From contig CALVTP010000002.1 of assembly GCA_944362765.1 (NCBI GenBank), positions 52,550 through 116,549 on the forward strand: a stretch of DNA of 64,000 nucleotides, read 5' to 3'. The notes under the pieces were generated by a model. The model searched no databases, was not told where the DNA came from, and saw nothing but the letters and a program-made list of their open reading frames with translations. Each line of letters begins with the position of its first letter. Position 1 is the stretch's first letter. The translations under genes were made by a program, and so were the position numbers. This stretch comes from an uncultured Clostridia bacterium. GTDB taxonomy: Bacteria > Bacillota > Clostridia > Christensenellales > DTU072. This document shows, piece after piece, positions 26,190 to 63,018 of this stretch.

Positions 26190-26247
26190 TATTATGTATA
26201 GAAGCGCGGGCGCGCTTGTTCGCGCGCATACACGTGAAAGAGGTAAC

Positions 26248-30133: not shown

Positions 30134-31458
30134 CTTTGGACAAGGGCTACCGCCCGATGTATCTGTATCGGAAAAAGTTTTTGGAAGACGCCGATAAGGC
30201 GGGCTCAAAGCCCGTTTCGATAGCGTTGGAAAGAGGAGAAGGTGAGGTCGCGGTCTTTAAAACACGGCTTTACGAAAGCGGGCACGCTAAGGAAAATTTC
30301 AGGTATCTGGAGCGCGTGGTAAAGTTCATGCTCTGGGGTTACGGAGGATACAAATTCCTGATTGCGGGAGCGGACGAGCTGGTAGAGAAGCTTCAGAAGT
30401 GCTATTCACCGACGGGTGCGCGCGCCTTCGACTTCGAGTTCATGCGAGGTGTCTACCTTAGGGAAATCACTTTTGAAAAAGTCCGGGAAGCGGACATTCC
30501 CTCTCCGAAAACACATTCTGAACCGGTCTCGTTGACGGGCTTAGGCAAGCGGATAGGCTTTGACGCGGGCGGTTCCGACAGAAAGGTCACCGCGCTCGAA
30601 AACGGCGTTGTGGTATACGAAAACGAGACTATCTGGAACCCAAAACTCAATTCAGATCCTCAATACCATATTGACGGCATCGCCGATTCCATCAATAAGG
30701 CTTTGGAAAAATTGGGTGGGCGGACAGACCATATCGGAGTTTCCACCGCAGGGATTGTCGTGGACGACGAAGTCAGGGTGGCGTCTCTTTTCAGGAAGGT
30801 ACCCAAGACGCTCTTCCCCGAAAAGATCTTTCCCATCTACAAAAACCTTTCCCAAAAATATTCCTGCCCCGTCAAAGTGGCAAACGACGGCGACGTGGCT
30901 GCGCTCTCCGGCGCATACGCTTTAAACCGCGGCGGAGTTTTAGGCATCGCTATGGGTACTTCGCTTGCGGGCGGCTATATCGACAGAGAGATGAGGATAC
31001 TCGGATATCTGAACGAACTTGCATTCGTACCGGTCGACGAAAATCCGGGCGCTGCAACCGACGAATGGAGCGGCGATGCCGGAGTAGGTGGCATGTACCA
31101 CTCTCAGGACGCCGTCATCAAACTCGCTCCCGAAGCCGGCATCGAACTTGACCCCTCGCTTACTCCCGCCGAGAAGCTGAAAGTCGTTCAAAACCTCGCC
31201 GAAGCCGACGATCCGCGCGCCCTCGATATATTCACAAGACTCGGCGATTATGCGGCGTATACTCTGATGTGGTTTAACGTCTTCTACGACTTCGATATTG
31301 CCATTTTCATGGGCAGAGTGACTTCTGGAAAGGGCGGCGACCGACTTATTGAAAGGGCGAAGGAAGTGCTTGAAAAAGAGGGCAGCAGCCTTATCATAGA
31401 GCTTCCCGACGAAACCTCCCGACGCCTAGGGCAGTCCTATACCGCTTCTTTACTATAA
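30130..31458 (+). CDS. ROK-like/ASKHA-fold sugar kinase family protein
   Basis: 442 aa. IGFDAGGSDRKV (phosphate-1-like), VANDGDVAALSGAY, GIAMGTSLAGGYID. ATG at 30130 with GGAGG upstream, overlapping the upstream stop (ATGA). Confidence 0.6.
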   Translation: MTLDKGYRPMYLYRKKFLEDADKAGSKPVSIALERGEGEVAVFKTRLYESGHAKENFRYLERVVKFMLWGYGGYKFLIAGADELVEKLQKCYSPTGARAFDFEFMRGVYLREITFEKVREADIPSPKTHSEPVSLTGLGKRIGFDAGGSDRKVTALENGVVVYENETIWNPKLNSDPQYHIDGIADSINKALEKLGGRTDHIGVSTAGIVVDDEVRVASLFRKVPKTLFPEKIFPIYKNLSQKYSCPVKVANDGDVAALSGAYALNRGGVLGIAMGTSLAGGYIDREMRILGYLNELAFVPVDENPGAATDEWSGDAGVGGMYHSQDAVIKLAPEAGIELDPSLTPAEKLKVVQNLAEADDPRALDIFTRLGDYAAYTLMWFNVFYDFDIAIFMGRVTSGKGGDRLIERAKEVLEKEGSSLIIELPDETSRRLGQSYTASLL

Positions 31459-32405: not shown

Positions 32406-32440
32406 GGTTTATTTGTTATAGCCCTTCCCGCAAGAGTGAA

Positions 32441-33015: not shown

Positions 33016-33021
33016 TATAGG

Positions 33022-33125: not shown

Positions 33126-33141
33126 CGCCCGCGCTCGCTCG

Positions 33142-33430: not shown

Positions 33431-33438
33431 AATCAAAA

Positions 33439-33929: not shown

Positions 33930-33959
33930 TTGACACACGCGTAATAAAAAGAGTAAAAT
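33930..33959 (+). promoter_or_regulatory. Sigma-A-type promoter of the 9.6k-aa gene
   Basis: TTGACA (33930-33935), 18-bp spacer, TAAAAT (33954-33959). It lies about 80 nt upstream of the ATG at 34039. A second TTGACT is at 33912. Confidence 0.5.
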
Positions 33960-34038
33960 TGCTGCGTAGGGTTCGGATGCCGGATTGCCGATGTCCGATC
34001 GCCCGAAAGCGAAGACTCCATTGGCTCCGGAGAAGCAT

Positions 34039-37000
34039 ATGAAACACAAAATTTTCATCCGACTTTTAATCATCGTTTTATCCCTTGCCGTAGTGGCGGG
34101 GATAGTTGCCTGTTCGCCTCGTGACGAAGCGTTGACCGACCCGGAGATCGTTCCGGGTACCGAAGTCGACATCGTCGATCAGGTGGTGACGAGCGAACAA
34201 ATCACCAGCGACGAATCGAGAGAACTTGTGGACGAGGCAATGAACAATTACCGCGAGATCCACGCGGCGCCCAGCGATCCCGAATGGTACGTGATCGACA
34301 TGCTGCTTACATACGATTACGACTATTTCTGGCTGGATGAAAACGAGAAGATGGACAAGACGTCCTCCTTCGAATTTGAATTCAAAGCCAACATGAATCT
34401 GAAAGACAACAACGAGAGCCAGGTTTTCATTCAGCTTCGCAATTCGGGCGGCACGCCGATATTCGGACTTTACTATGTCGAAAATTACGCTTATTTTGTT
34501 ATAGGCAGCAACCGCTATTACGCAAGGGAGATAAACTTCGGGCAGCTGGGGATGCTGATTTACGAGGGACTGGGCTCGCTTGCCGAAAGTTCCGGAATAA
34601 ATCTGGATATTTTCGGGATTCTGGCGGGACTTCCGACCGGTTCCACCGGCATAGCGTTGATAGACGGTATTTTGCCGTTGGTTTCCGGAATTTTCTTTAA
34701 CACGAAAGACATCACGCTGAACTCTTCCGATATCGACGAAGATGGCAATTTCAACACGCAGACCATCAGCACTTCGTTACTGCTCAACAATCTGTTGACG
34801 CTTCTGCAGAACGAAGACGGGCTCGGTATCGAAGGGTTAGTAGGTATCCCGCCCATCTGGTTCGGCGGAATTTGGGATCTGGCCGGCATCGACCTCGACC
34901 CCGTTTTAAACCAATTCCTCGGCTTCACGCTTGCCGAGCTTGCCGTAAAGCAATGGCAGCCGATGGACGCAAGGTATAACGTTATCACGGAAAGGCAGCT
35001 TGTCACGCGCGTGGACGCGGACGGATTTGAAGAGAGCTCCTATGAATACGTGGCGACCGGCTGGGGGCTGACGATAGACACCCTTTTGAATTCGCTCGGC
35101 GAAAATGACAACAAGGCGGGCGGTATGTCTTCTGTCAGAAGCAAGTGGGGCAACACCGAACCTTCCCAATTTGTCGCTACCGAGGAGCTGCCGTTTGTCG
35201 AAGAGTATACGGTGGACATTTACTTCTCGCCGATGATGTACGCGTCGAACGAGCCGATCGGCATCAACTTCGCCAACCTCGACGCCAACGAGGACGGCAG
35301 AGGTTCCGTTTATTCTTCGGGCGGACTCGGCAACCTCGGTCTGGAAGCGACCTTGTCCATAGAGGCGGATAACGGTACCGTCACTTTAAACGACATTCTG
35401 GGCGATTTCCTCGATGTCGACCTCGGGGCATTGGGCGAGATGCCGATACAATTTACGGGCTTCACGCCGGGGAACGACTTTTACGATCTCGGCATAAGCC
35501 TCAACCTCGGACTTGACTTCTTCGAAGGTATGAACACCAACGTCGAAGCTACCATTTCCTATAATTCCAATCCGCTTATCAGGGTGTATCTTGACGACAA
35601 CGTGCTGTACCTGAATTTCGACGGGCTGAAGCTTGCGGACGGCACTGCGGCAGGAAAGGAAATTCTTCCCAAGATAAAAATTCCGAACTTTAACATCAAC
35701 GCGCTTCTGGACGGGCTGTTCCTGGATATGATAAAGCCCTTCCTTGACCCGGACGCCGTTCCGGTTGCGGGGATACTCGGCGGAGGCTCGGCTTCCGGCG
35801 CTTCGAACGCACAGAACGCCGAAGGCGATACGGGGACTTCCATAGACGTCATGGCGCTTATCGGCACGATACTCGACAACTTCGAATTCCCCGGCAGGGG
35901 CGAATATGTCGAGGACAGGGACGGTAACCTCGTTTTAGACGAAAACGGGCAGCCGATCCCGAACAACTTCGATATTTATATGAACCTTGATTCCGCCGAG
36001 CTCGGCGATTTGCTGGCAAGCTTCGGGCTTCCCGTCAATCCCGGCGGACAACTCGGTTCGGGGCTCGGGGTACAGCTGTACTTCAATCAATACGATCCCA
36101 TCAACACATTCTCGCTTTCTGTAAACGTCACCGAGGATATCGGACTCGGGCTGACGATAGACAGATTAAGCTATTTAAGAGAACCCGACTGGCAAAACGA
36201 CGACATGGTGCAGGGGCACACGGACGAGTACATAAATCTCGGGCTGACGGGTCCCTCGACGGACGGCGTCTGGAGCCCGGACGATCTGTTGGAAGGGCTG
36301 GTCGGTATCATAGATCCTTATTTCGAGCTTGAACTCGGCGGCGAGGTAGAACTCGGCTTGGGCGACACCACCGGCGGAGCCGACGAAAACGGCTACCACG
36401 GTCTGGATTTAAGCGCGCTTATCGGCACTTTCGTCGAAAACCTGATGCTGTTTGTGGGCGTCAATCTTGACGGGAACGATTCGATAAAAGGTACAATAGG
36501 CTACTCGATACACGGGCTTATAGACCTTATGCACCTCGACGAGCTGGAAGTTTCGGTCGATTTGTATCTGAATGAAGAAGAGAACTATATTGCAAGAATA
36601 TTCTATGTCGGAGACGTCGACACGCTCTATCTCGATTTAAGCAGCCTTGCGGAAACGCTCGGCATCGAACTGAACGAAAACGGCGGGTTGTTGAGCAGTC
36701 TGCCGATGTTGAAGATCCCGGGGCTCGGGCTGTCCGACATGCTTTCGTCGATAAGCCTGGTCGACATTCTCGCGGGAATCCTGACTTCGAATTCTCCGTC
36801 GAACGCACAGAACGCCGAAGGTGAAGGGGCGAAAGAGTACGCTCCGCTGTTCGGGCTGAATATAGACATTTCCGACGGTAATTTCGGCTTTACCGGGCTG
36901 TACGAAGCCATACTCGCGATGGGATATATCGCGCTCTTCCCCGAAGACGCCGAAATGAACCCGTGGAACGCAGCTTATTATAAAATAGCTTCGGCGGTAC

Positions 37001-40000
37001 AAAATGTCGAGGGCGACGGTACCGAGTCGGGCGGCGGTATCGACATTCTCGCGCTGATAGGAGGCGCGCTTGACAGCGTCGAACTCGACAAAACCATGGG
37101 CACTCTGACCGTGGTGGTGGCGTCTCAGGTACTGACGACGGTGGTAGGCTCTCTCCTCGAAGGATTCCCCTCCGGCGGCACTCTGCCCGAGGTCGAAGCG
37201 TATGTCAGGCTCCACCTTGACAATCTCGACTTCGAAAACATCGACGACAGCATTCTGACGATATACCTGGCGCTGCTGGCGCCCGGGGCGGACGACGAAG
37301 CGGTGCGCGCCATCAGCCTCAAAATCGACCCGATAAAGAGCCTCAGCCTCTACAAAGCCGTCAACACTAACGGCATAATGCAGGAAGAGGGCATACTGGA
37401 CGCCGACTTTACCGATATCCAGGAATTTTTGGACGATCTGAAAGTCGGTATCAATATCGGCGGCGGTCTCTCACTCGATTCCGACAAGCCACTCGATTCC
37501 GACGAGCCCATTTACTACGAAAACGATTATCTTAACGGTCTTCTCAGCGGATTGCTGAGTGGATTGGGACTGAGGTTTGACGTTTCCAAGCTCGATATCG
37601 ATCTCGGGCTGCAGATTGTCGGTACTCTCTCGTTGGGAGGCTTGCTTAAACTTGACGGCAGCGCCGGTTCCGATCCCATACAGACGTTGTTATCCGGTTC
37701 GGAAGCCATGATACGGCTTTACGACGAAAACAATGAAGATCAAATCATTCTGGCGCTGTACTTGTATAACGGAAACCTCTATCTCGACCTCAGCTACTTC
37801 GGCATTCCGAAAATAGGTATTACCGACGTACAGAAGCTTATTACCGACATTACGGAGCTGACCGCGTCTCCGACGCCGCCGCTTCCCGATAATTCGGAGT
37901 CGCTTTCCAACGATTCCGAATGGAACCTTCTCAATATCGACAACACCGAAAAATACGCAAACCTTGCCAACCCGCTTGCCGTGGCGCTCCAGGCAGTGAT
38001 AGGCACCGAAGCCGTCACCGTCAACGTTGCAAAGGACGCCATAGCGGCATTGCTCGGGATGTTGCTGAACACCGAACTTCCGATAGAGATCCAGGACACC
38101 GATTTAAGCATCAATTACGGCGGCGGGAACATCGGGCTCGAAGTGAATACGGGCGTTGACTGCTTCAACCTCGGCGTCGAACTCGGCGACGTAAAGCTGG
38201 CGGTAGGTACCTCGGCGGATGAGGATATATGGGAGGAATTCGCTTTCACCCCGCCCGTCGAAGGCTCCTTCAACATGTCCGGCGGCGGACTGCCGACCAA
38301 CATTTCCTTCGGGCTGAAAGCCGAAATAGGGGTGCATGCCGAGGACGCTACTATAGACCTCACTCCTGCGCTGTCGGGGCTTCTTGGCGATATAAGCATG
38401 GAGGTTCTGATAGAGGCGTTGGGTCTGGTGGACGAAAGCCTCACTCTTTCGATAGACGGCATTCTGAACCTCGAAGAGCTTATCAATATAGCGACTAACG
38501 GCTTCAACTTTGCAAATATCCGCGAAACCGAGGTGGCGCTTACTATAACGACGGGCGAAGACAAACCCGTTCTGGAAGTCTACTTCGTGGGCGGAGATCT
38601 GTATCTAAATATCGAAACGGGCATTATCTCACTTGACCATGTCAAGATAGAGAATGCGGGCGAGTTCATCGGCGAACTCATCTCCGACATCACCAACGGC
38701 GGCGAAGCGGGCGACGTTTCCAACGCACCGATGCTTACGGAGGGCGAGGTGACGGCAGACGAAGTCGTCTATACCTATATCACCCTTGTGCTGGCGGACG
38801 GCGGGTTGTCGCTGACGCTTGCAAAGGACTTCCTGATGGGATTGTTTGCCACTCTCGGCGTCGACCTCGGAAGCTACCTTGACAGCTTCGGCTTCGAAGT
38901 CAGTCTGGAAGCGGGGCTGAGCCCGCTCGAGGTCAATCTCGGAATCAGCCTGTGGGAAGAATCCGACAGCTCCGCAGGGGAAGGCGGCGAAAACGGATCG
39001 GGAAAGGGAGAAATAACGCTCGAAGCCTCCATCTTCGGACTGACGTTGGGTGTCGACACCCCCGCGATGGCGGTTCCCGATCTGAACGAATACAGCGTCA
39101 TTCAGAAGCTGGATACCATCGGCGTGACGCTTACGGGACAAATTACCGGTGAAATCTCCGCCGAAGGGCAGACCGGTAACGAAGAGACGGGCTTCGGAGA
39201 GGGTTATTACCACGCCTTTATCGAAGTGTTCGACGAAATTTCGAAGGTGCTCGACCAATCCGCCGCCAAGGATAAGATGGTGTGGGTAAGTCAGAAGATG
39301 CTCACCGAAGAGTGGCAGAATTACCGCAAGGAAAACGGACTCACGCCCGACCAGCTTCAGAAGCATTTGTCCGAGCTCTACGACGAGGAAGTGGCGCCGA
39401 TGAGTTACGAGACGCTTCTCGACGTTGCGTTGATTCTCGAGGTGCTGGATTCCTATATCGAAGACAATAAAGCCACCTTCGGCGGTACGATTTATTACAG
39501 AATAGAAGCGATACTCGATATTACCGATATAATGAATCTGAAACTCGCGCTGTTCCTGAACGACAGGGATGACCCGAACCTCAACGGCAACATCATGAGC
39601 GTGTCGGTCATGGGCGTTTTGGATGAAGAGACCGGCGAGTACGACATAAACCTCTTTGCCGACCTTACCAACCTTTTGTCGGACGGACTGGTAATAAAGG
39701 ACAAGATAAGGATCTCTGACTTTGACGAATTTTCGGCGTATATGGCGTCTTTTGCGGAACAATTCACCGGAAAGAACGCATCCGCGGCGCCCGTTGCGAC
39801 GGAATCTCAGAATAACGGACTGGAGCTTCCGAAGAACGCCGAAGGCGAGATAGCCGATTCCGTCATGACCGGAGCGGCGTTCGTGTTGGCGATAACCGAA
39901 CACGCCGCCGAGAACGGCATTCCGAACGGCGCGCCGATTTCGGTGGTGGCGCCTTCCGCGGCAATTTACTCGCTGATCGGTTCCTTACTGGATTCGGCAT

Positions 40001-58000: not shown

Positions 58001-61000
58001 ACGTCTACAACGTAAGCTGGAGTTCCGTTACGAACTATTCTATAGGTGGCGGCACCGTTACGGCGTCGGCAAGGATTGCGGCAAACAAGTTCTTCAACAG
58101 CGATTACGCCACAGACTCCGTGAAGTATGAAGTCATAGGCGAAAAGATCGTCGATTACAAAATCAATTCCGACGTCACCATAGACCCGTACGCCAACGGC
58201 GGCGACATCAATAAGACGCTGACGGCGGCGATTCTGAACGGCGCCACGACGATTATCGTAACGACCGCAAGGGATGACGGCACTTCGGGAGAAAGAGAGC
58301 TGAATATCACTTATCCGAAGATTGAACTCGACAAGAACGCGAACGGCGGTATTTTGGGCGGAGTCATCGAAACGACCGCCAATATCGGCGTGACCGTGAC
58401 TCCGTATTCCGGCAAGCCCATAAACATAAACGTCAGGCAGTCCGTTCCGATCCGTGTAACGATTGAAGAGCGCATCGCCGTCGGTATCAGGACATGGCAT
58501 GCGGAAGACTTTGCGTCGCTGACGGTTTCCATCTACGACAAGCTCGACTTCGGAACGCTCACCAACATGAACGTCATGAAGATAGGCGGCAACATAACCG
58601 ACGACATTTCGGGCATCGGATACTTCTCCTCGATGGAAGAAATCACGATAGCCGAGTTCATGACGGGTGAGGAGTATGCCGAGGAGTACAAGGCGATCAG
58701 AACGTATGAGCTCCGCGAGGGAGTCGGGAACAGACAAATCCGGCGCATATTCGTCGACGGTTCCGACGTCTATGTACTCTACCGCGGCGAAGCGTTCGGA
58801 AGCGCCGGCTCCGGTTCCTACAACGGAATCACTCTTGCATGGGAGACCGTTACGGAAGACGTTACCATCCTCTTCAACAACGGCGTTGAAAGGACGGTCG
58901 AAGCACTCGGAGTGGGAATCGAATATGAAGACTCCGTCATCAACTACAACTTCACCGGCGGCGTCTACAATGTACCCGTGACGATAAAGGGAACGCACGA
59001 GCAAACCTTCCTTATCCCCGTCACCGTCAGGTCGGCAAACGTCGAAAAGATAGGCTTGACGCCCGATTTCACCGACGTCCTCGGTATAGTCGGAGTCAAC
59101 GAAGGCGACGGTACGATAAGCGGACTGACCATCGACCCGTATGTCGGCTTCACGGACGACCTTGGCGACGAGAAGCTGCCGACGAAGGTGCTTGCCTACC
59201 TCACCGGCTACGCCAACCCGATAGAGCTTTCGGTGTATTGGGATTACACAAGGATCCTTGCCGAGATGACGGTAAACGGCGGCTCGTTTACTAAGGATAA
59301 CGACAAGGCGGCGTTGGCGTTCGTCTATGTCGAGGGCGAGGACGGTGCGAGAGAGGCGGTACAGTCCGTCGAAATCGACGTCACCGTATTGAAGAGAGCC
59401 TATGCCGAACTCTTCTACGGAAAAGGAGCGTCCTCGGTTCCGACCGGCGTGCTGACCGATACCGCGCCCGACGAAAATAATTACACCTCCGAGAGCGATT
59501 ATACGTCCGGCATGACCATAACGCCGTACGTCGATATCTATAACACCGATTTCGGCTCCGAGGAGTTCAGCTTCTTCAAGAGCGTGGCGCTCAGGATAGA
59601 AACCGACGAAGGTCATAAGTACATCTACTTCAACCTCTCCGAGGACGACTACAACATCACCGACAGAAATACCGGGCGCCCCGTCAACACCGAAAACCTC
59701 TACACCGGAAGAAGGATAGCGGTAAGATTCGGTTACGGTGCCACTTCGCCGACAGCGGCAGAGGACGCGAACAGCATCGCAACGCTCTATGTCAATATTC
59801 CCGACATGAGCTATGATTCCGGCTTGACGGAACGCTACTCCATAGACGTCTACGGCTTCGAAACGGGTGCGCTTACCTCCTACGAGGAAGTCACCCAAGG
59901 AGTCAACGAAAAAGTTACGGTCACAGGCGCGGAAGGCAATTTCGAGACTTTCGTCACTTACGACTTCACCCGCGCGCTGATCGATAACGCTTCGGGCGAC
60001 GAGATAGATTACAGTGGCGGTACCGCTTTGGTGACTGCGACTATCGGAGACGAGATGTTCGGCTTCCAGAGGGTCACCATCACCTTGAACTACTTAGACA
60101 GGACGGTCACAGAGCTCTTTGAGGCGGATGGAGTTTACAGCTACGCTTCGTACGCGGACGGCAGGACGGGACTCCACTTCGAATTCGATCCCTTCCTCGA
60201 TTATGTGCCCGAGAATATATTCCCCGACGGCACGAATGCCGACGGCACGAATGAGGAAGTCGTATTCGCAAGCGGCAACGAAAATGGTTCCTTTAGAAGC
60301 TATTGGGCTCCCGAAACCGAGGAAGGCGCCGAAGCGCCCGCGCCAGGCGTTGAGGAAGGTAACCTGATGGTTATCTGGGACGACTCCAGAGTGGCGCTGA
60401 CCTACTCCGGTTCCGACGCTGCTTATGTCACCGCTACGATCTCCGCCCGAGACGGCTCCTATCCGCAGACGACCACCTTCGGCTTCACCGTTTACGACAG
60501 AACGGTGACCGGGTTCAGCAACCTGCTGCAGGACGGCATAGAAGACGCACAAGGCAACATAACCCCCTTGAAACCGTACGACTATCTGTATGCGGAAGAT
60601 TTAAGCTCGGCAATCGCAGGCGATTATCTCAAAGGAGCAGAGGAAGGGTTTACGGTAGAGTTCGGTAACATCGAAAGGGAACCCGAAAGCTTCAGCCTAA
60701 CCTTTACAATCGGTGCGGCGGCAAGGAACTTCTCGGTAACGGATGACTACGAGGACCGCTACACCGAAGGCACCATGACCGGGCATGACAGGCTTTCGGC
60801 TATGCTTGAAGCAAGTGGCGAAGACGACATGCCGATGCGCTTCGTATTGGATGAAGCAAGAGGTATAAGCTATCGCGGTAAGGACGCAAGGTTCTATATC
60901 GCCATTCCGGGCTTTGCCCTCGGCGAGGACGGCGAACAGGCTGCAAGACAGGATCTTCCCGTAGCCGAACAGTACATCATCGGCGTGCAATTTGCCGTTG

Positions 61001-62940
61001 TGGAAGATGACGCGGAGCCCGTCGGCGATACTACCTACGTCGATTACCTCACATGGCTTGAGGGACGCGGAGAGGTAACTCAGGCAACGGGAGAACGCAT
61101 GATCGACAGGGTAGAACCCGGTAAGGACAACAACTACTACAACGATATGTATCACGTATATAATCCCTACTTCTTTATCGAGAGGGGCGGCGTGATATTG
61201 CCTGCGTTCGGCAGAATCTATGTCGGCACCATCCAACAGTCCGCTTATGAAGAATACCTTAGTAGTAATCCGACCGGCGACGTCATGAATTACGAGACAT
61301 GGCGTTACGATATCGGAAGAGTTGATCTCGAGCAATACGATATCGAGATGAACTGGACGAATATCGTCAACGGCAGAAAGCGGATAAGCGTCTACGACGA
61401 CACAACGTCTGCTTCCTTCCAGATAGACCTCGATTCGCAATCCTACGCAATGCGCTTCAGGATAGAAGAAGGATGGGTACTGGACAACAACCTCATCATC
61501 CGTGAATTAAACAAGCAATACGGAAAGGACGAAGTCATTCTGCTTTCCAATGCTTCGGCACAGCAGAAACCCTCCCAGAATTCCGATCCCACCGTACAAT
61601 GGGTAGAGATCACGGGAGAACCGCTCAGCGGAGTGACAATTTACGATACTTACACCATCCATTTCGGTTCGGGCAAGGAGTACACTTTCAACGGTATCAC
61701 GGGCGGAGGTGCGTACTTCAACGATTATATGAAGTGGAACTTCGACGCCGTCAATTGGAATGTAAGGTCCACCCAGTCTGCTACGCTGACCCTTGGCGGC
61801 AACGGCGGACAACAGGTGAGGTGGGAGTTCGGGGTCAATCCGAATAAGGTAGTCGTCAACACCGATATGCCGACAATGCTTTCGATACGGAGAGGACAAA
61901 ACGCTTCCCTCAAGGATACCTTCCGGCAATACTTTGCGGGCGCCGGCTTCGGCAGCGTCATTCCCGTCGAGTATTCGTACACCACGGTCGGCAGCAGCAA
62001 TGATAGAAATTACGTCTATAGCTTCTACGCTGCCAATTCCAACGCCGAGGTAGGGTTTGAAGCATATCTCAATACGACGGACAACGGTACCGCTCTGACT
62101 GTATCCACTCAGCATATTACTCCCGGGTATCGTTACGATAACTCCGAATATGTGCAGCACATAGAGGATAATGCGGAGAAAGAAAAAGCGTTGAAGGAAC
62201 GTTGGGATACTCCGTACTACCCGGGCTATATCGTATGGAGCGCTACCTCCAGCCGAGCCTATCCGAAGACTTCGGTGGGAGGAAGAATAGTTGTCTGCGT
62301 CTACGACGATCCGAGGACGGAGGCTCTGCCCGGCGAAGACAACACCAGCGGAAAGGACGATAACCTTACCTCGGAAGGACTGGTGCTCCATAATCCGGAT
62401 GCCTCCTACGCCATCAGCGAATTAAAACCGATGCTGACGAACTTTGTATATCCCGCCGGGATGCCGGCTGCCCTCGACGTTTCGGTTAAGTACAGCGAAA
62501 CCGAACAAATGAAGATATACGAGATTCCGAAGACCGATTACATTATCACTTACAGCGGAGGTAATTGGAGCCAGCAAAGGATCCCCGTCATCAGCGTCAA
62601 ACAGAACAGCGTGTTCGACATGAGGGGATTACCGATTATGACGGTGAAGCGCGAGAGGAACTGGGTTCGCTCCAACGGTGGCTTCTTCGGTAAAGGAGAA
62701 GTCCTTAAGGGCGTCAGTTACGACCTCAGCTACCTCATTCCGTGGCAGGATGCGACAGTCTACTACACGACCGATAAGTTCAACCAGTTTGCTTCGTATA
62801 CAGCGTTGGAAGGCGGTATCGCCGCGATCGATACCTCGGCCGCAACCAATTGCAGGTATCGCATACAGACAACGATCGACTTCGGAAGCCAGAAGGTTCC
62901 CGTCACCGTCTATCTCGACATCACCCCCAATAATGATTGA
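34039..62940 (+). CDS. Giant acidic predicted lipoprotein (~9,633 aa). The N-terminal ~5,600 aa consist of unclassified degenerate modules. These are followed by a CarboxypepD_reg-like domain and about 4,000 aa of Ig-like (Big_4-like) repeats.
   Basis: Single uninterrupted ORF 33985-62940. ATG at 34039 preceded by GGAGAAG. MKHKIFIRLLIIVLSLAVVAGIVAC|SPRDEA is a signal peptide plus lipobox. Own promoter and strong terminator. No LPXTG or SLH motif seen at the C-terminus. Confidence 0.9.
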   Translation: MKHKIFIRLLIIVLSLAVVAGIVACSPRDEALTDPEIVPGTEVDIVDQVVTSEQITSDESRELVDEAMNNYREIHAAPSDPEWYVIDMLLTYDYDYFWLDENEKMDKTSSFEFEFKANMNLKDNNESQVFIQLRNSGGTPIFGLYYVENYAYFVIGSNRYYAREINFGQLGMLIYEGLGSLAESSGINLDIFGILAGLPTGSTGIALIDGILPLVSGIFFNTKDITLNSSDIDEDGNFNTQTISTSLLLNNLLTLLQNEDGLGIEGLVGIPPIWFGGIWDLAGIDLDPVLNQFLGFTLAELAVKQWQPMDARYNVITERQLVTRVDADGFEESSYEYVATGWGLTIDTLLNSLGENDNKAGGMSSVRSKWGNTEPSQFVATEELPFVEEYTVDIYFSPMMYASNEPIGINFANLDANEDGRGSVYSSGGLGNLGLEATLSIEADNGTVTLNDILGDFLDVDLGALGEMPIQFTGFTPGNDFYDLGISLNLGLDFFEGMNTNVEATISYNSNPLIRVYLDDNVLYLNFDGLKLADGTAAGKEILPKIKIPNFNINALLDGLFLDMIKPFLDPDAVPVAGILGGGSASGASNAQNAEGDTGTSIDVMALIGTILDNFEFPGRGEYVEDRDGNLVLDENGQPIPNNFDIYMNLDSAELGDLLASFGLPVNPGGQLGSGLGVQLYFNQYDPINTFSLSVNVTEDIGLGLTIDRLSYLREPDWQNDDMVQGHTDEYINLGLTGPSTDGVWSPDDLLEGLVGIIDPYFELELGGEVELGLGDTTGGADENGYHGLDLSALIGTFVENLMLFVGVNLDGNDSIKGTIGYSIHGLIDLMHLDELEVSVDLYLNEEENYIARIFYVGDVDTLYLDLSSLAETLGIELNENGGLLSSLPMLKIPGLGLSDMLSSISLVDILAGILTSNSPSNAQNAEGEGAKEYAPLFGLNIDISDGNFGFTGLYEAILAMGYIALFPEDAEMNPWNAAYYKIASAVQNVEGDGTESGGGIDILALIGGALDSVELDKTMGTLTVVVASQVLTTVVGSLLEGFPSGGTLPEVEAYVRLHLDNLDFENIDDSILTIYLALLAPGADDEAVRAISLKIDPIKSLSLYKAVNTNGIMQEEGILDADFTDIQEFLDDLKVGINIGGGLSLDSDKPLDSDEPIYYENDYLNGLLSGLLSGLGLRFDVSKLDIDLGLQIVGTLSLGGLLKLDGSAGSDPIQTLLSGSEAMIRLYDENNEDQIILALYLYNGNLYLDLSYFGIPKIGITDVQKLITDITELTASPTPPLPDNSESLSNDSEWNLLNIDNTEKYANLANPLAVALQAVIGTEAVTVNVAKDAIAALLGMLLNTELPIEIQDTDLSINYGGGNIGLEVNTGVDCFNLGVELGDVKLAVGTSADEDIWEEFAFTPPVEGSFNMSGGGLPTNISFGLKAEIGVHAEDATIDLTPALSGLLGDISMEVLIEALGLVDESLTLSIDGILNLEELINIATNGFNFANIRETEVALTITTGEDKPVLEVYFVGGDLYLNIETGIISLDHVKIENAGEFIGELISDITNGGEAGDVSNAPMLTEGEVTADEVVYTYITLVLADGGLSLTLAKDFLMGLFATLGVDLGSYLDSFGFEVSLEAGLSPLEVNLGISLWEESDSSAGEGGENGSGKGEITLEASIFGLTLGVDTPAMAVPDLNEYSVIQKLDTIGVTLTGQITGEISAEGQTGNEETGFGEGYYHAFIEVFDEISKVLDQSAAKDKMVWVSQKMLTEEWQNYRKENGLTPDQLQKHLSELYDEEVAPMSYETLLDVALILEVLDSYIEDNKATFGGTIYYRIEAILDITDIMNLKLALFLNDRDDPNLNGNIMSVSVMGVLDEETGEYDINLFADLTNLLSDGLVIKDKIRISDFDEFSAYMASFAEQFTGKNASAAPVATESQNNGLELPKNAEGEIADSVMTGAAFVLAITEHAAENGIPNGAPISVVAPSAAIYSLIGSLLDSALAVDYEMPIDVEKEQERIANFLGNKYYDDEELYYLLRGALATLAAELNALGDYSDITELIDELEGLLHEEFTDKDDVFIDDEQLQGYISNEAGTDEGRIVRLLRAAGLTVGETVTDVWAVYEEAKKYTSSQNKLTDETEIKTATVLLWAGIREEIASEYYDMVEAGEMLERDWQYLVNGMIGKLDGTSFDDLEGNPTYIDPSDYPSIDISKFFGQYMPSGLIQIGAAEVPDAEGDGTHGAFFLLNLSISEVLKLQAEIEGITVELSPEDDPYFVGVTDEETGEVTGGLLNDDYYYLDPSAMDAHSIILRLSTTIAFDAKDTSPGDEDGQGKTAIDLTEVVGAIFSEVLGADLNNVGAIIENAGYDAKEVGLDLAVRLGLGDIMGLLAGEEIYGLLVNADLSLELSFKSLDAASDDVAKITFYYTDGTAYIDGSVIGVEKISVHYALGRLLEMFGIDISDYYDDGYVPGPGISGDISGQSNAEAPKNAAGADGTIASSPSNAEGDGEITGGDLLPYLHLMLGNESGIVLDFLGPLIFGVLKGVQVEIGGKELSGLLERAVNGNLRLQLGIMAKLGLLEDIYAKYPEAGETIDKSVLALALNIGNYTLGLGIDELAIDLDNTGSSTSILPESFNAQEYATTDNLQTVYVKFELGFDISGDANSQFGLDETLSALLTQLGGESTDPNDIMNTIKGMGLAPVISLLSELSDSFILEFEGNINLAEIIDYNTFYKSKFSVVLRDANRWAEYDGVRKHKEVFSGHYIGGDEFSSENPGGTLYLNFECFNIQPVRIDNFYKFFVGLLESYGINLGGGEEGEEGTETTTTEPQNSGFAGYISKDGFDPFASLRNMPEGSSELATYLNILLCPDGFFLGVGTAVVFAILRAIGGEAMDFSSYVDPIGEIGVEVGLLGPEKLLGLGLNFNAYEYLGDDRVVDEDGNYVLSDNSINLELSFSSDIALSFVYQFQYHEGMDWEPNEDGIVDLEMSAPEHAYMQDGTTQDYTVFDTTNPVIGVETKIYLDIAAGKVTGTGTTGAITDETLHGYELFREPLLSLLAGVLDVSLSVLLEVMEDQEFSLEIELLANLPLRNLRTLSAQLTIRRVDHNHNYIIARANLYSSDLYLDLSNLNGPRFMIEEVVETILGEKEFDLGALGDLFGSGGTETTTPSNAEGDTGYIDGPSTPIDLYFGMFFEELNSYGLALALTESTATSLLGALNMGSFDIFPDLLIQVFMAPNKNTFRLGVDIEASANYTDPADNSEHTSTVLDLGLGLDGLGIQFEGYAADELLIPPSTDYTRAHDINTIMLDASFQIGFNAEEGGIKLSNLFMTLFAPDGDIANIEGVKDSIAGFLFDKDNPLLSELPQFLMLGDFGDTLTIDVTGYVYIAAGLQGLLDRLQLKVVISTNAPQFSKENGKYLLALYYHDSDLYADFSNFGMGKVMAPDLPNVIEFIITGESADEREENPSNAEALFIEQYPTWAEAMGLNNSGGTSKIQGIAKILLGNDDGLMLTVTVEMLAALMSMLNVDIDLGSYVKDVINPSASVGMTPDSEYQIGIYLDSATHEWNTYDPETGEPVEDENGNPVTKPNNAGVALSIGILGQSIKADVKNVRTAVSEELGEASTLAPVISIEDRKAYTYFAQIALTTGTNIRLTIDLQDGNLDISELLKIVFGMLGLEPPDDIDTSIDFTGGDESLICEISVDIGVDLNRLLYAEDAAEIAKALTVDLVIGYTVMDNTGDAPVEYMSQDLIRISLLEDVVYAGVELFDSKLFVSLHELDLNNTIRRIMEKVFVVPELDDDTQIGGGNASENAEAASAPSNAPVSGTNPIIDMYLDQIETVGDFMQPLVYLNSQGFALMVTNGLLIEVIKALREIINEAVGSTEDDVLTDDNIEAIVDELLDYMSLGVYFDEDKEGNLSIDVGISKESVEEDVGNGGTSESVGYDITLSLLPDSHLVISTDSYNEYMNELASSESFTELKENALDIYVSDADATNWEVSVGVDLTLSADLKAYILDWSSLFDNEVDQDGNYGASFFIQALNDMEGDVTLRLKADVLLRQLGLWSVDLILQLVTLDEDGNVIAEHLGLYIPGAVAATTDAAPGYDYNGQLKMYLSLGNDINIEIDGAAFESFLGLNLTTVIDQLAEVLGDTAGNLSGTLDGLLGQIGDMLESLVDMVGDDETTEESGEASFVEGEGGTTDPTEPGADGEEELDSAWYLGILSSLEFAKATIGVVLARSVLQALLNNVLEFPFKEQLGEIAVRLDNYKNSLALSIGLDYQEDIDLSETEWEDLQDFAIAEPGREEVADAVTDVNRDMVSYGVSGTLLGFSEDGIIPVYDAGYVTDTALAVELGLAGVTALDRGAKVYHAIYARYDNDGLYDTIVDYYRNMEGSSDDFIVEVSGTDGYAQFRSDEIRLGIIVTNHSEQVTASDYDTTETKDVTVYYTVVSFMYGEAYKEFKYNELLSGTHYGGTENLVGRTEMDGSVVYSGEYAEKMFEMAEYGSLVTEAREYDEHFLETTEGSDYPVFTAYENEEDEVGIPITLDPAISYVSNRDVTGSVTGSSDRLENIGVKRVFYFIYDPAELFGEAFGEVFTDVAVYGKRAIDVLEALYGMFESSDTPYVETIYGKDSADPLEKRYALRNSSAQFSVDIKIVGVFDESGAPVGYRVVLAASSDQSMFNFGLKISDLDIGLGAGNIFTDTEINGKFFESGRDALVHFNDNYHPLEEYAWEFSLDSELTLDDTVGGIFDMTNLIGTIFGLIGGENEILAALEDLRLAIQPVDDLAMKIGFHIAAYINFARVEDTRFQLGISFNGKTMINLTYIGGYVDAHGDPISISAGEMIPDGAVESGTLYADLSGMGLVAVKLGGIPLGSILRKLIEGINLDGVINISGEESGEEEAVSTPENLSSALETLVSGPQNAGARPENRVELEDFGWNDKLLLITLGKEETSLAITGALLYSLIYNLGISSLFGDMMGDTVIELPMFRNLQIGYSEEDGMKGLFIRLTDEADYEHAFRIGYNFTDDTSMKFETGLNSSITANEYNPDAAEGEEGSDITTSVQYDDISVLSKIGLSLALEARIRTKNTEKAPQLIAVETLLQEILGMSADTINIDPQDSVVVLTVELDAYVDLANLVDTTLILRITFQGEDLIAVYLSEGKVYADLSGVGLFGAKINGVDLMGILTTFLADFAGSGGVDLGGMIDGVLDSLTGSDEASGNTYAASAPSNAAAQNAPVTDLISSTSSPMLKILLTNNELILNPNMAIITSLLGDTLTAQYGPDAALPNISDIRLTLNLYEGLTNLNLRVKLDQKGNYVNLAIPAGSLSIGIGSHATEIFTPSTDNLGGVVGLSVGLNSSGGIAANIDAMALAQSLLDTINLVDFTIYIEKRNDYFFLRNLSYGGTNGTLDTTSIGTSWSTGPTYFSPKLEEIITKGEGYSEENKNPYDAAFVDVGGAISLDFLGDIIPDAVQSWVENALKNVLKGYRPIFFNNAYRRISLKISKNMTNGLDIPISQLTQVANAQTIEDSSNFEPQMVTAFLKNNVLHLSLYNLLVIDISGLLETVLGWIVGAIADALKGTIVGGIAGAAIDLIWGIFDEAAADWLAGIIGDLTGYGNPLRIGQILDDALGNGNGGIPIVNMYLPELLGGETSTPSYASVHGTISDAETGKVLEGATVTLTDESGAAKYSTETDSSGDYMFVNIVAGTYYVRIEKAGYTTKPETSALINNYAVTANANTIAEANFSLSPYGAKEFPAGTVEIKFTVADEGTYKVQIEVDGKYDEANEPMEVTLSAGGNYTFLVNMPLVTNDRHNVRLMKKADDGSYSVYGTPEQLNLTNKWDWANSRPLYDVDENGVSTGKVHFDLAFAESAPSQAEELVSYAEEPATSGTITFDLKTLSSVTVLEGTATAVFDEYADAPQNASASFPVGAVSVHPIYNSDFDKELEENGGKIVFSGTGAENSYIVTYDYSDKASAYSAYSAFKEKLEGSIEFDNKTYTYSVTEKIDRKYFAAVGYDTDASVEARLFTEQEVVGKPVYRIVLAIAKAVEIPVNGDVEVWLEVDLDGDGRTEHTVRVNESATNAVFGDMVPLTNPGESDKLALATYKQKVLYYQNNARDYLLYDGTDNEIQDNTLSGGTVTLTNLPFYSNGQGVYKVKIRSTVYENVDFENTVTLNANNGKAELGEMIIKPRVAPDWITERQNSPAASMLQGIRIRLGADVFDASGDTDPDYTDAGYTPDGIPMTNYDYMTTLGDSVVNAAIGSVAGQVTGAISSWLGGLVGGTGGSILQWLASQGLGALTGMIPSADNDDQYLDANGKPIFAPWTNYITGFEGGRTDRSDSVFYIEAWVSSTLINDVFSMVNNLLLGYCGYGEITMEKRYSAADLCDIIEGEGDNAEILKVTGTFNEATDHQIYDYVFENEADYINTNYAAGGRLAGSVVSFALNWALPALLGLNMNANTQETALGLIQAVAYSIDFLIDVLDQATRLLSHLLPFTMPYSMILEKELPGSPLQQEEVYSTMWDDSKAWYQYLTNVNETGSGLLEGNWSSWVPHLEGQVYNSEGERGTSPDTVTVPSGTSTAEIKIGKVVGQRSTNVKELIANEGILDQGDKVIGYNYLDTSAQYGAEAEYNYNAGYGISDGEGNSLSTMLSGGDDIIDYKNLTISSAPEIDDDGNLLKGVLRELDFVDKSVYAKITLNNNVDTLLDRITAFINGASYTGAEMGAMFTTDNYMTAATELRADTILYNPSTGEPLNEKYAAVEDMIMEWIASNITNSYVIITDYEYFTDEQGVTTRKLIGKTYVRDVYGHFDDEDFLYGDISWILANDPEVEDDGKLSEAARYSYVSRYKLDDNGQPIKDLKDEAYAGVNQDETGVASYAKAVDMFSAKDDRFMELDISNNGIRLRSVQNFSSTYYSVPNGTIGMSNTPMSPPTEIIFHDPYNSLDFTAVGGTWAGETGTRRNFNGTGYTVQSLTDIFPNRADINFADGNSTDSEGVYIYWDTSMIEFVPSTDGEVRGYIYGYIANYEMVAVPVRVQEAVMLTSDDFKDVMPEIDPMNFNEEEYIKLLPETWIETFNLVYESYSDTGVTYHDYQRTYMFNNLSWDIDESTIGMSGTPATAYLTYSFSAAKPLDGALAEGASAAEVTIPVYIKVRDLNIVTIEKLTAKEYMNLTLKDGALAIRLAENALAETEFDAEYAANHGTELSTDAATVLGYASRYTALVGYTGSFDTVTVYDANNEDAVYIVYTGVNYTEVEAYAGNYPAISPSVNDGSVFKAYGYLNEHEFVKGTPDEDGVIPDGTLIKDENGETGETVETVIVINPFEVTDLYEDFAGLKWLYAEIEGSHLNAEGESEYEYWRVDSVNAEALRNVDITALEHDDYVVTLTISDSLGNTTDVDIIVRIRPRTIVTNLDDEIEREALTPFGDNSNAVTTKMAYDNGVLVLAFYRAKADIDEELSFSVATSHPSTSTAGWPTAEIREFGIFDAYQGRMTDIASYYDEGTSEGNDEALYVVIRGVDSGSVTDYYERLNAAGMMGFITENNLAEECFAAEGRINEFNLPSTLTVDYGDPVTGEAYLTDVELTEGVDFVWVADDPAKLRYDYDASGTWTYTWTARVGLGENTQDLPLDFTINTRIPTGALNVTVHPYSEYTEGGEIKNGAELGNVSEIRFRTGNNDTTLNLDAPVYYIIPDSWKEDVTYDTVEIDGTTYMTNVEFLNPVFNGSFYYMTVLVYDEMFGYIAFENVRVTLLKSTIDVLNVNWDEFDPFTTYEATAKLNDILLGGNKDNITAFIYEAENISIKYGAFDILGWTYADGDNFKPEYSFAGDDVPEIIVTIGNPAEDGIEKGSIWSQNVPLNIPEAMFKPARIIGLTEQKGNGYEITVDDSGKINFKINDPYGFTMPREFEVKYDEIGETATLGRTGFTIADKFFTKQESEGSITFGSGNNMQTVKVTFVNGLVRGNVAEVKYFADALDASVEVTDDTKDFFTGFEPYAFDTYKLPLYARVRWEGKTEYDENVYNVSWSSVTNYSIGGGTVTASARIAANKFFNSDYATDSVKYEVIGEKIVDYKINSDVTIDPYANGGDINKTLTAAILNGATTIIVTTARDDGTSGERELNITYPKIELDKNANGGILGGVIETTANIGVTVTPYSGKPININVRQSVPIRVTIEERIAVGIRTWHAEDFASLTVSIYDKLDFGTLTNMNVMKIGGNITDDISGIGYFSSMEEITIAEFMTGEEYAEEYKAIRTYELREGVGNRQIRRIFVDGSDVYVLYRGEAFGSAGSGSYNGITLAWETVTEDVTILFNNGVERTVEALGVGIEYEDSVINYNFTGGVYNVPVTIKGTHEQTFLIPVTVRSANVEKIGLTPDFTDVLGIVGVNEGDGTISGLTIDPYVGFTDDLGDEKLPTKVLAYLTGYANPIELSVYWDYTRILAEMTVNGGSFTKDNDKAALAFVYVEGEDGAREAVQSVEIDVTVLKRAYAELFYGKGASSVPTGVLTDTAPDENNYTSESDYTSGMTITPYVDIYNTDFGSEEFSFFKSVALRIETDEGHKYIYFNLSEDDYNITDRNTGRPVNTENLYTGRRIAVRFGYGATSPTAAEDANSIATLYVNIPDMSYDSGLTERYSIDVYGFETGALTSYEEVTQGVNEKVTVTGAEGNFETFVTYDFTRALIDNASGDEIDYSGGTALVTATIGDEMFGFQRVTITLNYLDRTVTELFEADGVYSYASYADGRTGLHFEFDPFLDYVPENIFPDGTNADGTNEEVVFASGNENGSFRSYWAPETEEGAEAPAPGVEEGNLMVIWDDSRVALTYSGSDAAYVTATISARDGSYPQTTTFGFTVYDRTVTGFSNLLQDGIEDAQGNITPLKPYDYLYAEDLSSAIAGDYLKGAEEGFTVEFGNIEREPESFSLTFTIGAAARNFSVTDDYEDRYTEGTMTGHDRLSAMLEASGEDDMPMRFVLDEARGISYRGKDARFYIAIPGFALGEDGEQAARQDLPVAEQYIIGVQFAVVEDDAEPVGDTTYVDYLTWLEGRGEVTQATGERMIDRVEPGKDNNYYNDMYHVYNPYFFIERGGVILPAFGRIYVGTIQQSAYEEYLSSNPTGDVMNYETWRYDIGRVDLEQYDIEMNWTNIVNGRKRISVYDDTTSASFQIDLDSQSYAMRFRIEEGWVLDNNLIIRELNKQYGKDEVILLSNASAQQKPSQNSDPTVQWVEITGEPLSGVTIYDTYTIHFGSGKEYTFNGITGGGAYFNDYMKWNFDAVNWNVRSTQSATLTLGGNGGQQVRWEFGVNPNKVVVNTDMPTMLSIRRGQNASLKDTFRQYFAGAGFGSVIPVEYSYTTVGSSNDRNYVYSFYAANSNAEVGFEAYLNTTDNGTALTVSTQHITPGYRYDNSEYVQHIEDNAEKEKALKERWDTPYYPGYIVWSATSSRAYPKTSVGGRIVVCVYDDPRTEALPGEDNTSGKDDNLTSEGLVLHNPDASYAISELKPMLTNFVYPAGMPAALDVSVKYSETEQMKIYEIPKTDYIITYSGGNWSQQRIPVISVKQNSVFDMRGLPIMTVKRERNWVRSNGGFFGKGEVLKGVSYDLSYLIPWQDATVYYTTDKFNQFASYTALEGGIAAIDTSAATNCRYRIQTTIDFGSQKVPVTVYLDITPNND
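50935..51129 (+). other. Carboxypeptidase-regulatory-like (CarboxypepD_reg) beta-sandwich domain inside the giant lipoprotein
   Basis: SVHGTISDAETGKVLEGATVTLTDESGAAKYSTETDSSGDYMFVNIVAGTYYVRIEKAGYTTKPE matches the G.V.D..tg.Pl.gA.V.l......t.Td..G.y.f..l..G.Y.l.v...Gy pattern. Confidence 0.65.
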
Positions 62941-62980: not shown

Positions 62981-63018
62981 GCCGGGCGCAAAACTGCGCC
63001 CGGCATTATTTTTATTTT
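62981..63018 (+). terminator. Rho-independent terminator of the giant gene
   Basis: GCCGGGCGCA-AAAC-TGCGCCCGGC (10-bp GC-rich stem) followed by ATTATTTTTATTTT. Confidence 0.85.

Follow-up and report, generated by a model that had tools for sequence, protein, structure and literature searches.

A predicted acidic lipoprotein of 9,633 residues with a divergent 13-module array in an uncultured gut Clostridia bacterium

The giant gene and its integrity

The window (the whole stretch of DNA analysed here, 64,000 nucleotides of contig CALVTP010000002.1) contains a single open reading frame (ORF) of 9,633 codons that runs on the + strand from an ATG at 34039 to a TGA at 62938-62940 with 0 internal stops, as an initial annotation made from the sequence had described it. 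When counted from a TTG, the same frame is listed among the ORFs of the window as 33985..62940 (+), with the ATG at 34039. At the window stop-codon frequency of 0.029, the log-probability that this frame is open by chance is approximately -283 (e^-283). The mature protein has a computed mass of 1,046 kDa, a computed pI of 4.05 and a net charge of approximately -1,000. The initial annotation described it as rich in Asp, Glu, Gly, Thr and Asn and poor in Cys, and a count of its composition agrees (L 9.9, G 9.6, D 8.2, E 7.9, A 7.5, T 7.3 and N 5.8 %); Leu is the commonest residue, and Cys makes up 0.10 % (10 residues). The promoter, Shine-Dalgarno sequence, lipobox leader and 10-bp GC-rich terminator named in the initial annotation are all present, and the features that delimit the gene are as follows.

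33930..33959, + strand: sigma-70-type promoter-like site TTGACA-N18-TAAAAT, 11/12 consensus matches
34029..34032, + strand: Shine-Dalgarno GGAG, 6 nt 5' of the ATG, read from the sequence
34039..62940, + strand: giant coding sequence, 9,633 aa plus stop
62981..63014, + strand: intrinsic terminator GCCGGGCGC-loop-GCGCCCGGC followed by a T-run, stem read from the sequence

The promoter-like site is a consensus match only, and chance alone would yield about 1 such site in the 800-nt region. The terminator hairpin (62981-63004) has a 10-bp stem with 9 G-C pairs. These signals had been taken to argue for a real, independently expressed gene. To judge from the sequence the gene does look independently expressed, and codon usage, orthologues and collinearity agree that it is real.

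The giant ORF is a genuine, native chromosomal gene of an uncultured gut Clostridia bacterium (Christensenellales-like). This conclusion follows from its native codon usage, a strain comparison, open orthologous frames, collinearity with other assemblies and the lack of collapsible repeats. The relative synonymous codon usage of the giant ORF correlates with that of 9 housekeeping and metabolic genes of the window at r = 0.92 (0.13 and -0.42 in the off-frames), with r = 0.90 for the N-terminal half and 0.91 for the C-terminal half; GC content at the first, second and third codon positions matches too. The strain assembly L002 is 98 % identical to the window and spans window 33522-49409. Every indel between the two is a multiple of 3 save one 67-bp deletion in L002, and the codon differences comprise 85 synonymous and 104 non-synonymous changes. 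Furthermore, in 14 orthologous loci (25-73 % identity) found by scanning one genome per GTDB species, the frame stays open as far as the fetched DNA or contig extends, over at most ~4,560 aa. The 44-59 % relative L019 is collinear with aa 1-6038, so that it crosses the junction between the N- and C-terminal parts, with aa 4017-6038 in one frame. L020 matches aa 7961-9628 collinearly in a single frame and terminates at the same point as the window protein. BLASTP self-comparison and an all-vs-all comparison of tiles revealed no near-identical internal repeats able to collapse or form a chimera in the giant gene, and the window is free of Ns.

An assembly artefact, a chimera or a decaying pseudogene could in principle have been read as one ORF, since relatives from a single ENA study (L002, L003 and L019) are split by the 67-bp deletion or by frameshifts, and aa ~6040-7960 are present in the window only. 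This explanation is hardly credible against 9,633 codons with neither a stop nor an N, native codon usage in both halves, a frame intact in 14 species, collinear assemblies both across the N/C junction and at the C-terminus, and the lack of near-identical repeats to collapse in assembly. The same evidence bears out the preference of the initial annotation for a real gene over an artefact, including a collapsed or chimeric repeat assembly.

The L002 deletion lies at L002 5737/5738 and corresponds to window 39280-39346, while the giant gene is broken at 9971, 14641, 15156 and 15853 in L019 and at ~12262 in L003. All three assemblies belong to one ENA study (ERZ162680xx-ERZ162682xx), and in them the giant gene is split into several calls with no N gaps.

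The family is rare and clade-restricted to a narrow gut group. A search for homologues in metagenome-assembled genomes of Clostridia, which had been proposed at the outset, is answered by the 14 GTDB species loci, which come from uncultured gut and digester Clostridia labelled Clostridia bacterium, Christensenellaceae, Eubacteriales, Ca. Stercoripulliclostridium or Firmicutes ADurb.Bin080. Orthologues lie on long contigs such as CALVUD010000003, JAZNIY010000008, CASFAV010000004, JAFVRJ010000026 and Ga0209723_1000554. Searches returned only 8 family fragments among 5.8 billion clustered proteins (1 is named, as 'hypothetical protein'), and 2 family loci were found among 241 million JGI metagenome records; a scan of the JGI metagenomes with the C-terminus of the giant protein gave no match. 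No published description of the family was found in the literature.

Anatomy of the encoded protein

The initial annotation called the product an acidic lipoprotein, and by sequence definition it is one. The leader (MKHKIFIRLLIIVLSLAVVAGIVA, with CS following the cleavage site) combines a basic n-region, a hydrophobic h-region, a lipobox of the form [LVI][ASTVI][GAS]C and a +1 Cys. The signal is kept in 19 of 19 orthologues, where it ends in [LIV][FAV]A↓C-S-P/Q/E-R, and C25, S26 and R28 are invariant in the orthologues of A2. The signal peptide also forms the peak of the Kyte-Doolittle hydrophobicity profile (2.91); all other maxima are at or below 2.06 and contain charged residues, and the profile shows neither an internal segment of transmembrane strength nor a C-terminal hydrophobic segment.

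The observation that other anchoring features are missing has also held. A regular-expression search of the whole giant protein found no LPXTG or LPx[TSA][GAN] motif, and the sole NPxTG (NPSTG) sits mid-protein, away from the C-terminus. Tiled searches (two Pfam sets and one NCBIfam set) gave no match to SLH, choline-binding, Gram_pos_anchor, autotransporter, YadA, ShlB or RTX/HemolysinCabind families. Similarly, and as stated in the initial annotation, the genes of the window include none for type I, type V or type VII secretion systems (T1SS, T5SS, T7SS), accessory Sec or sortase. The protein is divided as follows.

34039..34113, + strand: aa 1-25, predicted type II lipoprotein signal peptide, lipobox IVA↓C, Cys25 = +1
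34114..34680, + strand: aa 26-214, conserved membrane-proximal N-terminal domain, many residues invariant in A2
34681..39876, + strand: modules m1-m5, aa 215-583, 584-945, 965-1277, 1278-1557 and 1558-1946, from mapping with a hidden Markov model (HMM), leave-one-out scoring and tiles
39877..40518, + strand: insert 1 between m5 and m6, aa 1947-2160, no module-profile match
40519..46560, + strand: modules m6-m11, aa 2161-2468, 2469-2810, 2811-3150, 3151-3443, 3444-3784 and 3785-4174, from HMM and tiles
46561..47523, + strand: insert 2 between m11 and m12, aa 4175-4495, from module-profile mapping
47524..49695, + strand: modules m12-m13, aa 4496-4879 and 4880-5219, the most alike pair (tiles E 8e-9 to 1e-7)
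49696..50934, + strand: junction, aa 5220-5632, no family match in the Pfam tilings
50935..51132, + strand: CarboxypepD_reg / prealbumin-like beta-sandwich, aa 5633-5698, PF13620, E 3e-16
51133..62937, + strand: C-terminal distal region, aa 5699-9633 (3,935 aa), beta-type composition

The larger part of the N-terminal region (aa 215-5219) is a tandem array of 13 divergent modules of 280-390 aa each, of which the recurring motifs '...LYLDLS...' and '...PSNAEGD...ID..L' were the first sign. An HMM built from 10 module copies picked up a further copy at E 8e-8, and leave-one-out scoring of the copies gave E values from 3e-12 to 4e-2. With orthologous copies added, the profile recognizes 13 modules in the window protein, 11-13 in each long orthologue and 0 in ORF1, a second giant ORF of the window (see below). 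An independent view is provided by the all-vs-all comparison of 200-aa tiles, in which 20 off-diagonal pairs reach E <= 1e-3, all of them within the first ~5,300 aa; block-shuffled controls yielded 0. Because the modules share just 14-24 % identity with one another, BLASTP is blind to them, and they have no match in Pfam, NCBIfam, PDB or BFVD. The array is rich in Leu (10-16 %). It had been stated that the N-terminal 5,600 aa match no family; this is correct as to family matches, but the region is not featureless, and the C-terminal ~3,900 aa are equally dark.

The linkers between modules (window 35788-49695; for example aa 583-600, 2480-2492, 3144-3156 and 3441-3452) carry the motif P-x-N-A-x-G, as in 'PSNAEGD'. 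Over 145 module instances, the Asn is conserved at 54-79 % and the Pro at 63-66 %, while the modules themselves share only ~16 % identity. The motif occupies ~65-77 % of the module instances and is not invariant, as the first linker in the orthologues of A2 reads EGEEG. The motif may mark a site of processing, modification or recognition, or may be left over from duplication.

Tiled domain and structure scans had been recommended in the initial annotation. The domain scans (two Pfam tilings, NCBIfam, PHROGs and Pfam scans of orthologues) returned CarboxypepD_reg as the sole domain above threshold, and what emerged besides was the module array and a model of module m9 with no fold relative. AlphaFold2 (AF2) applied to aa 1-1200 with 6 sequences gave a predicted local distance difference test score (pLDDT) of 39.9, with values of 50-79 only for aa ~50-550, where long 17-residue hairpins alternate with helices. 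Over aa ~50-150 the pLDDT is 54-79, and the N-terminal domain is modelled as a helix and long beta-hairpins. Foldseek matches of this model (ApoB100 beta-barrel, LolB, LolA-like proteins, lipovitellin and porins) all have TM-scores of 0.23 or less and serve as a lead only. The AF2 model of m9 (aa 3151-3443), made from a multiple sequence alignment of 31 paralogous modules from the window and its homologues, reached a pLDDT of 65.5 and a predicted TM-score (pTM) of 0.47, with 137 of 293 residues at pLDDT >= 70. It consists of 11 beta-strands, including hairpins of 11-17 residues, and 5 short helices, and its low-confidence ends are the linkers (pLDDT < 50). Foldseek found no significant fold neighbour for the m9 model, the best E values being 0.19 in PDB and 0.08 in BFVD with query TM-scores (TMq) of 0.19 or less. 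The PDB sequences likewise yielded no match when searched, by sequence and by profile, with the N-terminus, the module and both halves of the protein. Within the limits of a model of moderate confidence, the module appears to be a family with no known fold relative.

The CarboxypepD_reg domain is a bona fide member of PF13620 (59.9 bits vs a gathering cut-off of 32.3), and partial NCBIfam matches to S-layer and SdrD proteins coincide with the same stretch. It accounts for 66 aa, or 0.7 % of the giant protein, and roughly 99 % of all residues match no known sequence family. Gly/Ala/Ile-rich, glycine-zipper-like hydrophobic stretches (e.g. AAIGSVAGQVTGAISSWLGGLVGGTGGSILQWLASQGLGALTG) flank the region at window 50620-50754 (aa 5528-5572) and 52735-52863 (aa 6233-6275), both below transmembrane grade.

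The C-terminal region differs from the array in composition, with Leu at 5-9 % vs 10-16 % and raised Tyr (5-8 %), Thr and Ser, and the last ~400 aa are near-neutral, not acidic. Its single database homologue, P0006 / L020, aligns collinearly with it down to the final residues at 42-49 % identity, and over the C-terminal 1,200 aa the identity to P0006 stays at an even 40-60 % up to the end. No sequence repeats were detected in the C-terminal half (no tile pair at E <= 1e-3), and searches of Pfam, NCBIfam and PDB, by sequence and by profile, produced no family or structure match for the region. A hidden array of small domains, marked by recurring 'DP[YF]', was considered for the C-terminal half and rejected, as leave-one-out E values were 0.001-0.07 and the tiles were negative.

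Gene neighbourhood

The window is an origin-proximal segment of a Firmicute chromosome, with rpmH (11486-11620), rnpA, a housekeeping yidC (12197-13267), jag, mnmE and mnmG. A radical-SAM gene, an amidase_3 gene, tilS, hpt, a CCA/poly(A)-polymerase-family gene, VanW and a GPH-family sugar symporter follow mnmG. Next come genes for a transglutaminase-like (TGase-like) lipoprotein, a mutarotase-like and a ROK kinase-like protein, a 2.5-kb ORF-free stretch, the giant gene and a helix-turn-helix (HTH)-cupin regulator. The conserved neighbours are as follows.

26245..29265, + strand: transglutaminase-like lipoprotein, 1,006 aa, Pfam Transglut_core, NCBIfam MAG6410-family-like
29294..31458, + strand: TTE1925-type mutarotase-like (279 aa) and ROK kinase-like (446 aa) proteins

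The TGase-like lipoprotein has a leader ending in ...AFIVMGC, followed by E, and a weak Big_2 match. Its Cys-His-Asp triad (AVCDG...HAWN...DPTW) is intact and kept in 8 of 8 orthologues, in 6 of which a lipobox was found. In 8 related loci the trio of TGase-like, mutarotase-like and ROK genes sits directly 5' of the giant gene, and in 2 more, cut by contig ends, part of the trio does. The neighbour cluster is missing at 4 loci, and L006-L008 and L019 have no TGase gene upstream. The trio probably represents a sugar-utilisation cluster, related to the giant gene by synteny only. Of the neighbours, the TGase-like lipoprotein alone can plausibly be tied directly to the giant protein, which it could process or cross-link. 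The neighbours were rejected as export or anchoring partners, being a sugar-utilisation cluster and a TGase-like lipoprotein that are absent from 4 loci.

The stretch directly 5' of the giant gene (window 31459-34038) comprises 2.5 kb with no credible ORF and a GC content of 0.45, and is packed with repeats. These include 128-nt copies at 31480-31607 and 32440-32567 (97 %), 111-nt copies at 31750-31860 and 32304-32414, 86- plus 66-nt copies at 31580-31729 and 31973-32121, an array with a 50-nt period (x6) at 33148-33424 and one with a 25-nt period at 33439-33535. A search of Rfam with this stretch gave no credible match. A PIG-L/LmbE-type deacetylase gene fills the position in 5-6 orthologous loci and has left no trace in the window.

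The second giant ORF (ORF1; window 2-11248, + strand) went unmentioned in the initial account of the window. It encodes at least 3,748 aa, is open at the left window edge and ends just 5' of rpmH-rnpA-yidC. Its only matches are MBG_3 (E 3e-8) and a weak Beta_helix near the C-terminus, and its codon usage is native (r = 0.91). ORF1 was rejected as a paralogue of the giant protein, there being no BLASTP or module-HMM match between them. A 142-aa lipoprotein with the leader ...AVSLVAC, followed by I, and no family match is encoded between mnmG and the radical-SAM gene (window 17466-17894, + strand) and recurs in the identical Logan contig L001. An identical contig is carried by Logan ERR4096494.

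Both giant genes and nearly all others in the window (1-64000) are on the + strand, and the cumulative GC skew climbs from -0.04 to +0.68. The steady rise in skew, together with the strand, places these genes on the leading strand near the origin-proximal rpmH-rnpA-yidC-jag-mnmE-mnmG block. Leading-strand placement would minimise head-on conflicts between replication and transcription for very long genes.

Proposed function and comparison with known systems

The best reading of the giant protein is that it is a surface fibre or adhesin, exported by Sec/Lgt/Lsp and anchored by an N-terminal lipid (probability about 0.6). First, the type II signal peptide would lead the unfolded chain through SecYEG, as its strictly conserved lipobox suggests. 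Next, Lgt and Lsp would add the diacylglyceryl group and cleave at Cys25, leaving the N-terminus tethered to the outer leaflet of the cytoplasmic membrane. The membrane-proximal domain and the mostly-beta stalk of 13 modules, joined by short, low-confidence P-x-N-A-x-G linkers, may then carry the chain through and beyond the wall; the modular anatomy is observed, and the geometry is conjectural. Finally, the 4,400-aa C-terminal part, which is beta-rich and non-repetitive and has the CarboxypepD_reg beta-sandwich at its start, would be the distal exposed part for attachment, by analogy with N-anchored giant fibrillar adhesins. Candidate targets are host glycans or mucus, food particles and partner microbes.

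No dedicated secretion or wall-anchoring partner would be required for such a route. The initial annotation considered Sec export of about 1 MDa of polypeptide with an N-terminal lipid anchor to be mechanistically unusual, which overstates the case. Ebh of S. aureus (~1.1 MDa) and other giant Gram-positive surface proteins are Sec substrates with no dedicated partners, and a type II (lipoprotein) signal peptide alone suffices for export and anchoring. Because the lipoprotein signal and the Sec pathway suffice, the export puzzle is not real; a lipid anchor on so large a protein is uncommon, yet it is a variation and no new mechanism.

An extracellular, fibre-like anatomy is suggested by the 13 tandem modules, the mostly-beta model, the CarboxypepD_reg domain, the acidity and the few Cys residues. 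The CarboxypepD_reg / SdrD_B / SpaA-type beta-sandwich is a domain class typical of surface proteins, and extreme acidity and few Cys are typical of secreted bacterial proteins. Scans of Pfam and NCBIfam tiles found no enzyme domains in the giant protein. Giant bacterial proteins belong mainly to the non-ribosomal peptide synthetase/polyketide synthase or the surface/attachment classes (PMC11573180).

Several points weigh against a surface fibre or adhesin. No binding domain was found, and with ~99 % of the protein lacking a family or fold match, the adhesin label reflects architecture and analogy. Model quality is low to moderate (pLDDT 39.9 and 65.5), and the host envelope may not be a classical monoderm wall. 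Additionally, the full 9,633 aa are seen in one frame in the window only, with no independent assembly for aa ~6040-7960, and the related assemblies L002, L003 and L019 are frameshifted or split, whether through assembly error or real decay.

The giant protein may instead be a lipid-anchored, anionic cell-coat, surface layer (S-layer)-like or matrix protein that organises the outermost layer. Its huge size, uniform acidity (net charge ~ -1,000) and even conservation along a length with no special tip would suit such a role, as would the conservation of the family and, in most loci, of the gene neighbourhood; the CarboxypepD_reg stretch also aligns with part of an anammox S-layer glycoprotein model, far under the cut-off. 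However, the protein has neither an SLH domain nor any other domain for S-layer anchoring or self-assembly, a surface would be tiled inefficiently by a single 1-MDa chain for each anchor, and there is no sign of high expression, so that a coat function is rather unlikely.

The conservation of the linkers bears on a further alternative, in which the giant protein is a polyprotein cut at the P-x-N-A-x-G linkers into ~340-aa subunits, possibly by the upstream TGase-like (papain-fold) lipoprotein. SlpA of C. difficile, which is processed by Cwp84, would be an analogue. The motif is well conserved over its 145 instances despite the ~16 % identity of the modules, the linkers have pLDDT < 50, and a TGase-like lipoprotein with an intact triad is encoded upstream in 8 loci. 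In contrast, the motif varies between orthologues (EGEEG in the first linker of A2) and is found in only ~65-77 % of the module instances, no TGase gene precedes the giant gene in L006-L008 and L019, and the C-terminal 4,400 aa have no such linkers. We know of no precedent for a 13-fold polyprotein of this kind, and such processing is very unlikely.

The Foldseek lead described above would fit an array that binds lipid or hydrophobic cargo, with LolA/LolB- or ApoB/lipovitellin-like sheets forming a long groove as in bridge-like lipid transfer proteins. The matches to the low-confidence model of aa 1-1200 include the ApoB100 beta-barrel (E 1.8e-4), LolB (probability 0.95), the LolA superfamily and lipovitellin, and the modules are rich in Leu (10-16 %) with long curved hairpins. 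This function is most improbable, however, as every TM-score is at or below 0.23 for a model with a pLDDT of 39.9, the better m9 model (pLDDT 65.5) has no such matches, AsmA, TamB, LolA and DUF490 gave no Pfam match, and there is no evidence for a second host membrane to bridge. The ApoB and LolB matches were rejected as evidence on the same TM-score and pLDDT values. The size and N-anchored fibre layout that the giant protein shares with delivery proteins of the contact-dependent inhibition (CDI)/Rhs type, and very weak C-terminal matches (colicin-Z-related, E 0.077; Pam3 gp18, E 0.04), would fit a contact-dependent polymorphic toxin or a fibre that delivers effectors, its C-terminal tip being toxic. 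This role is likewise most improbable, since these matches are not significant, the tip is not variable (the C-terminal 1,200 aa being uniformly 40-60 % identical to P0006, in one pair), no small immunity-like gene lies 3' (the HTH-cupin regulator follows the terminator), and Pfam tiles contain no Rhs, PT-VENN or pretoxin motifs.

A bolder extension of the surface-fibre reading is that the ~340-aa module constitutes an undescribed fold family and the 13-copy array a new lipid-anchored, wall-spanning extender, which in the boldest version would be a polyprotein that the co-conserved TGase-like lipoprotein cuts at the P-x-N-A-x-G linkers into subunits of a surface layer; this is decidedly unlikely and is put forward as speculation. 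To our knowledge, the extenders of all characterised giant adhesins are immunoglobulin-like (Ig-like) or helical repeats. If true, a new extender or polyprotein layer would represent a novel means by which gut Clostridia build their outer surface. The Christensenellales-like gut Clostridia are uncultured or poorly studied, and their attachment to hosts, particles and syntrophic partners is little understood. The giant gene probably takes up at least a percent of a small genome, and its conservation with an intact frame in 14 species or more implies that selection strongly favours it. The family is a target for new extracellular folds and a new extender architecture, as well as an example of a megadalton lipoprotein, and it overturns no view of protein export. 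What makes it noteworthy is the combination of a conserved 1-MDa lipoprotein, a hidden 13-module array with no fold relative and a clade-restricted distribution.

Among known systems, Ebh resembles the giant protein in being a megadalton, Sec-dependent Firmicute surface fibre made of one polypeptide, with a long modular stalk and no dedicated secretion system. Ebh has a YSIRK-type signal, alpha-helical FIVAR-GA/DUF1542 repeats and a C-terminal transmembrane anchor, whereas the giant protein combines a lipoprotein signal with mostly-beta modules, lacks a C-terminal anchor and shows no Pfam match to Ebh domains. The giant RTX adhesins LapA, MpIBP and SiiE are T1SS substrates with RTX repeats and near-identical Ig-like extenders that are retained in the outer membrane. 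The giant protein shares with them an N-terminal anchor, a long extender, a distal C-terminal presumed ligand region and acidity. It differs in having no RTX repeats and no T1SS genes nearby, in modules that are 16-24 % identical and in its lipid anchor. Membership of the CarboxypepD_reg / SdrD_B / SpaA domain proteins holds for aa 5633-5698, and a single copy says nothing about the rest.

Two groups of giant genes known from the literature offer further comparisons. Lactobacillus (Apilactobacillus) kunkeei carries orphan genes for giant extracellular proteins, reaching ~25 kb, in the half of the chromosome that flanks the origin, with presumed roles in attachment (PMC4494060). Compared by description only, these are likewise lineage-restricted, from a gut-associated Firmicute, origin-flanking and little annotated in domains; they come from a different lineage, have EbhA-like helical similarities and occur in tandem arrays of paralogous genes (PMC4494060), unlike the giant gene. 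The giants of Omnitrophota (Archaeovorins) are predicted to form long antiparallel-beta assemblies with interspersed helices and are proposed to act in attachment (bioRxiv 10.1101/2023.11.21.568195). They are similarly very large and largely unannotatable, but have many transmembrane helices, SecA_DEAD and enzyme domains, and adjoining loci resembling type II secretion systems (T2SS) or type IV pili (T4P) (bioRxiv 10.1101/2023.11.21.568195), whereas the giant gene has no multiple transmembrane helices, SecA_DEAD or enzyme domains and no T2SS-like locus beside it.

Full-length homology to a characterised adhesin family, which the initial annotation named as one way in which its account might fail, was not found, and the defining features of the adhesin families tested are lacking. 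The giant protein falls outside the described families because none of the LPXTG, SLH/choline-binding, Ebh, RTX/T1SS, autotransporter, Omnitrophota and polymorphic toxin features tested for was found. While belonging to none of these families, it would, by analogy, work like a giant fibrillar adhesin.

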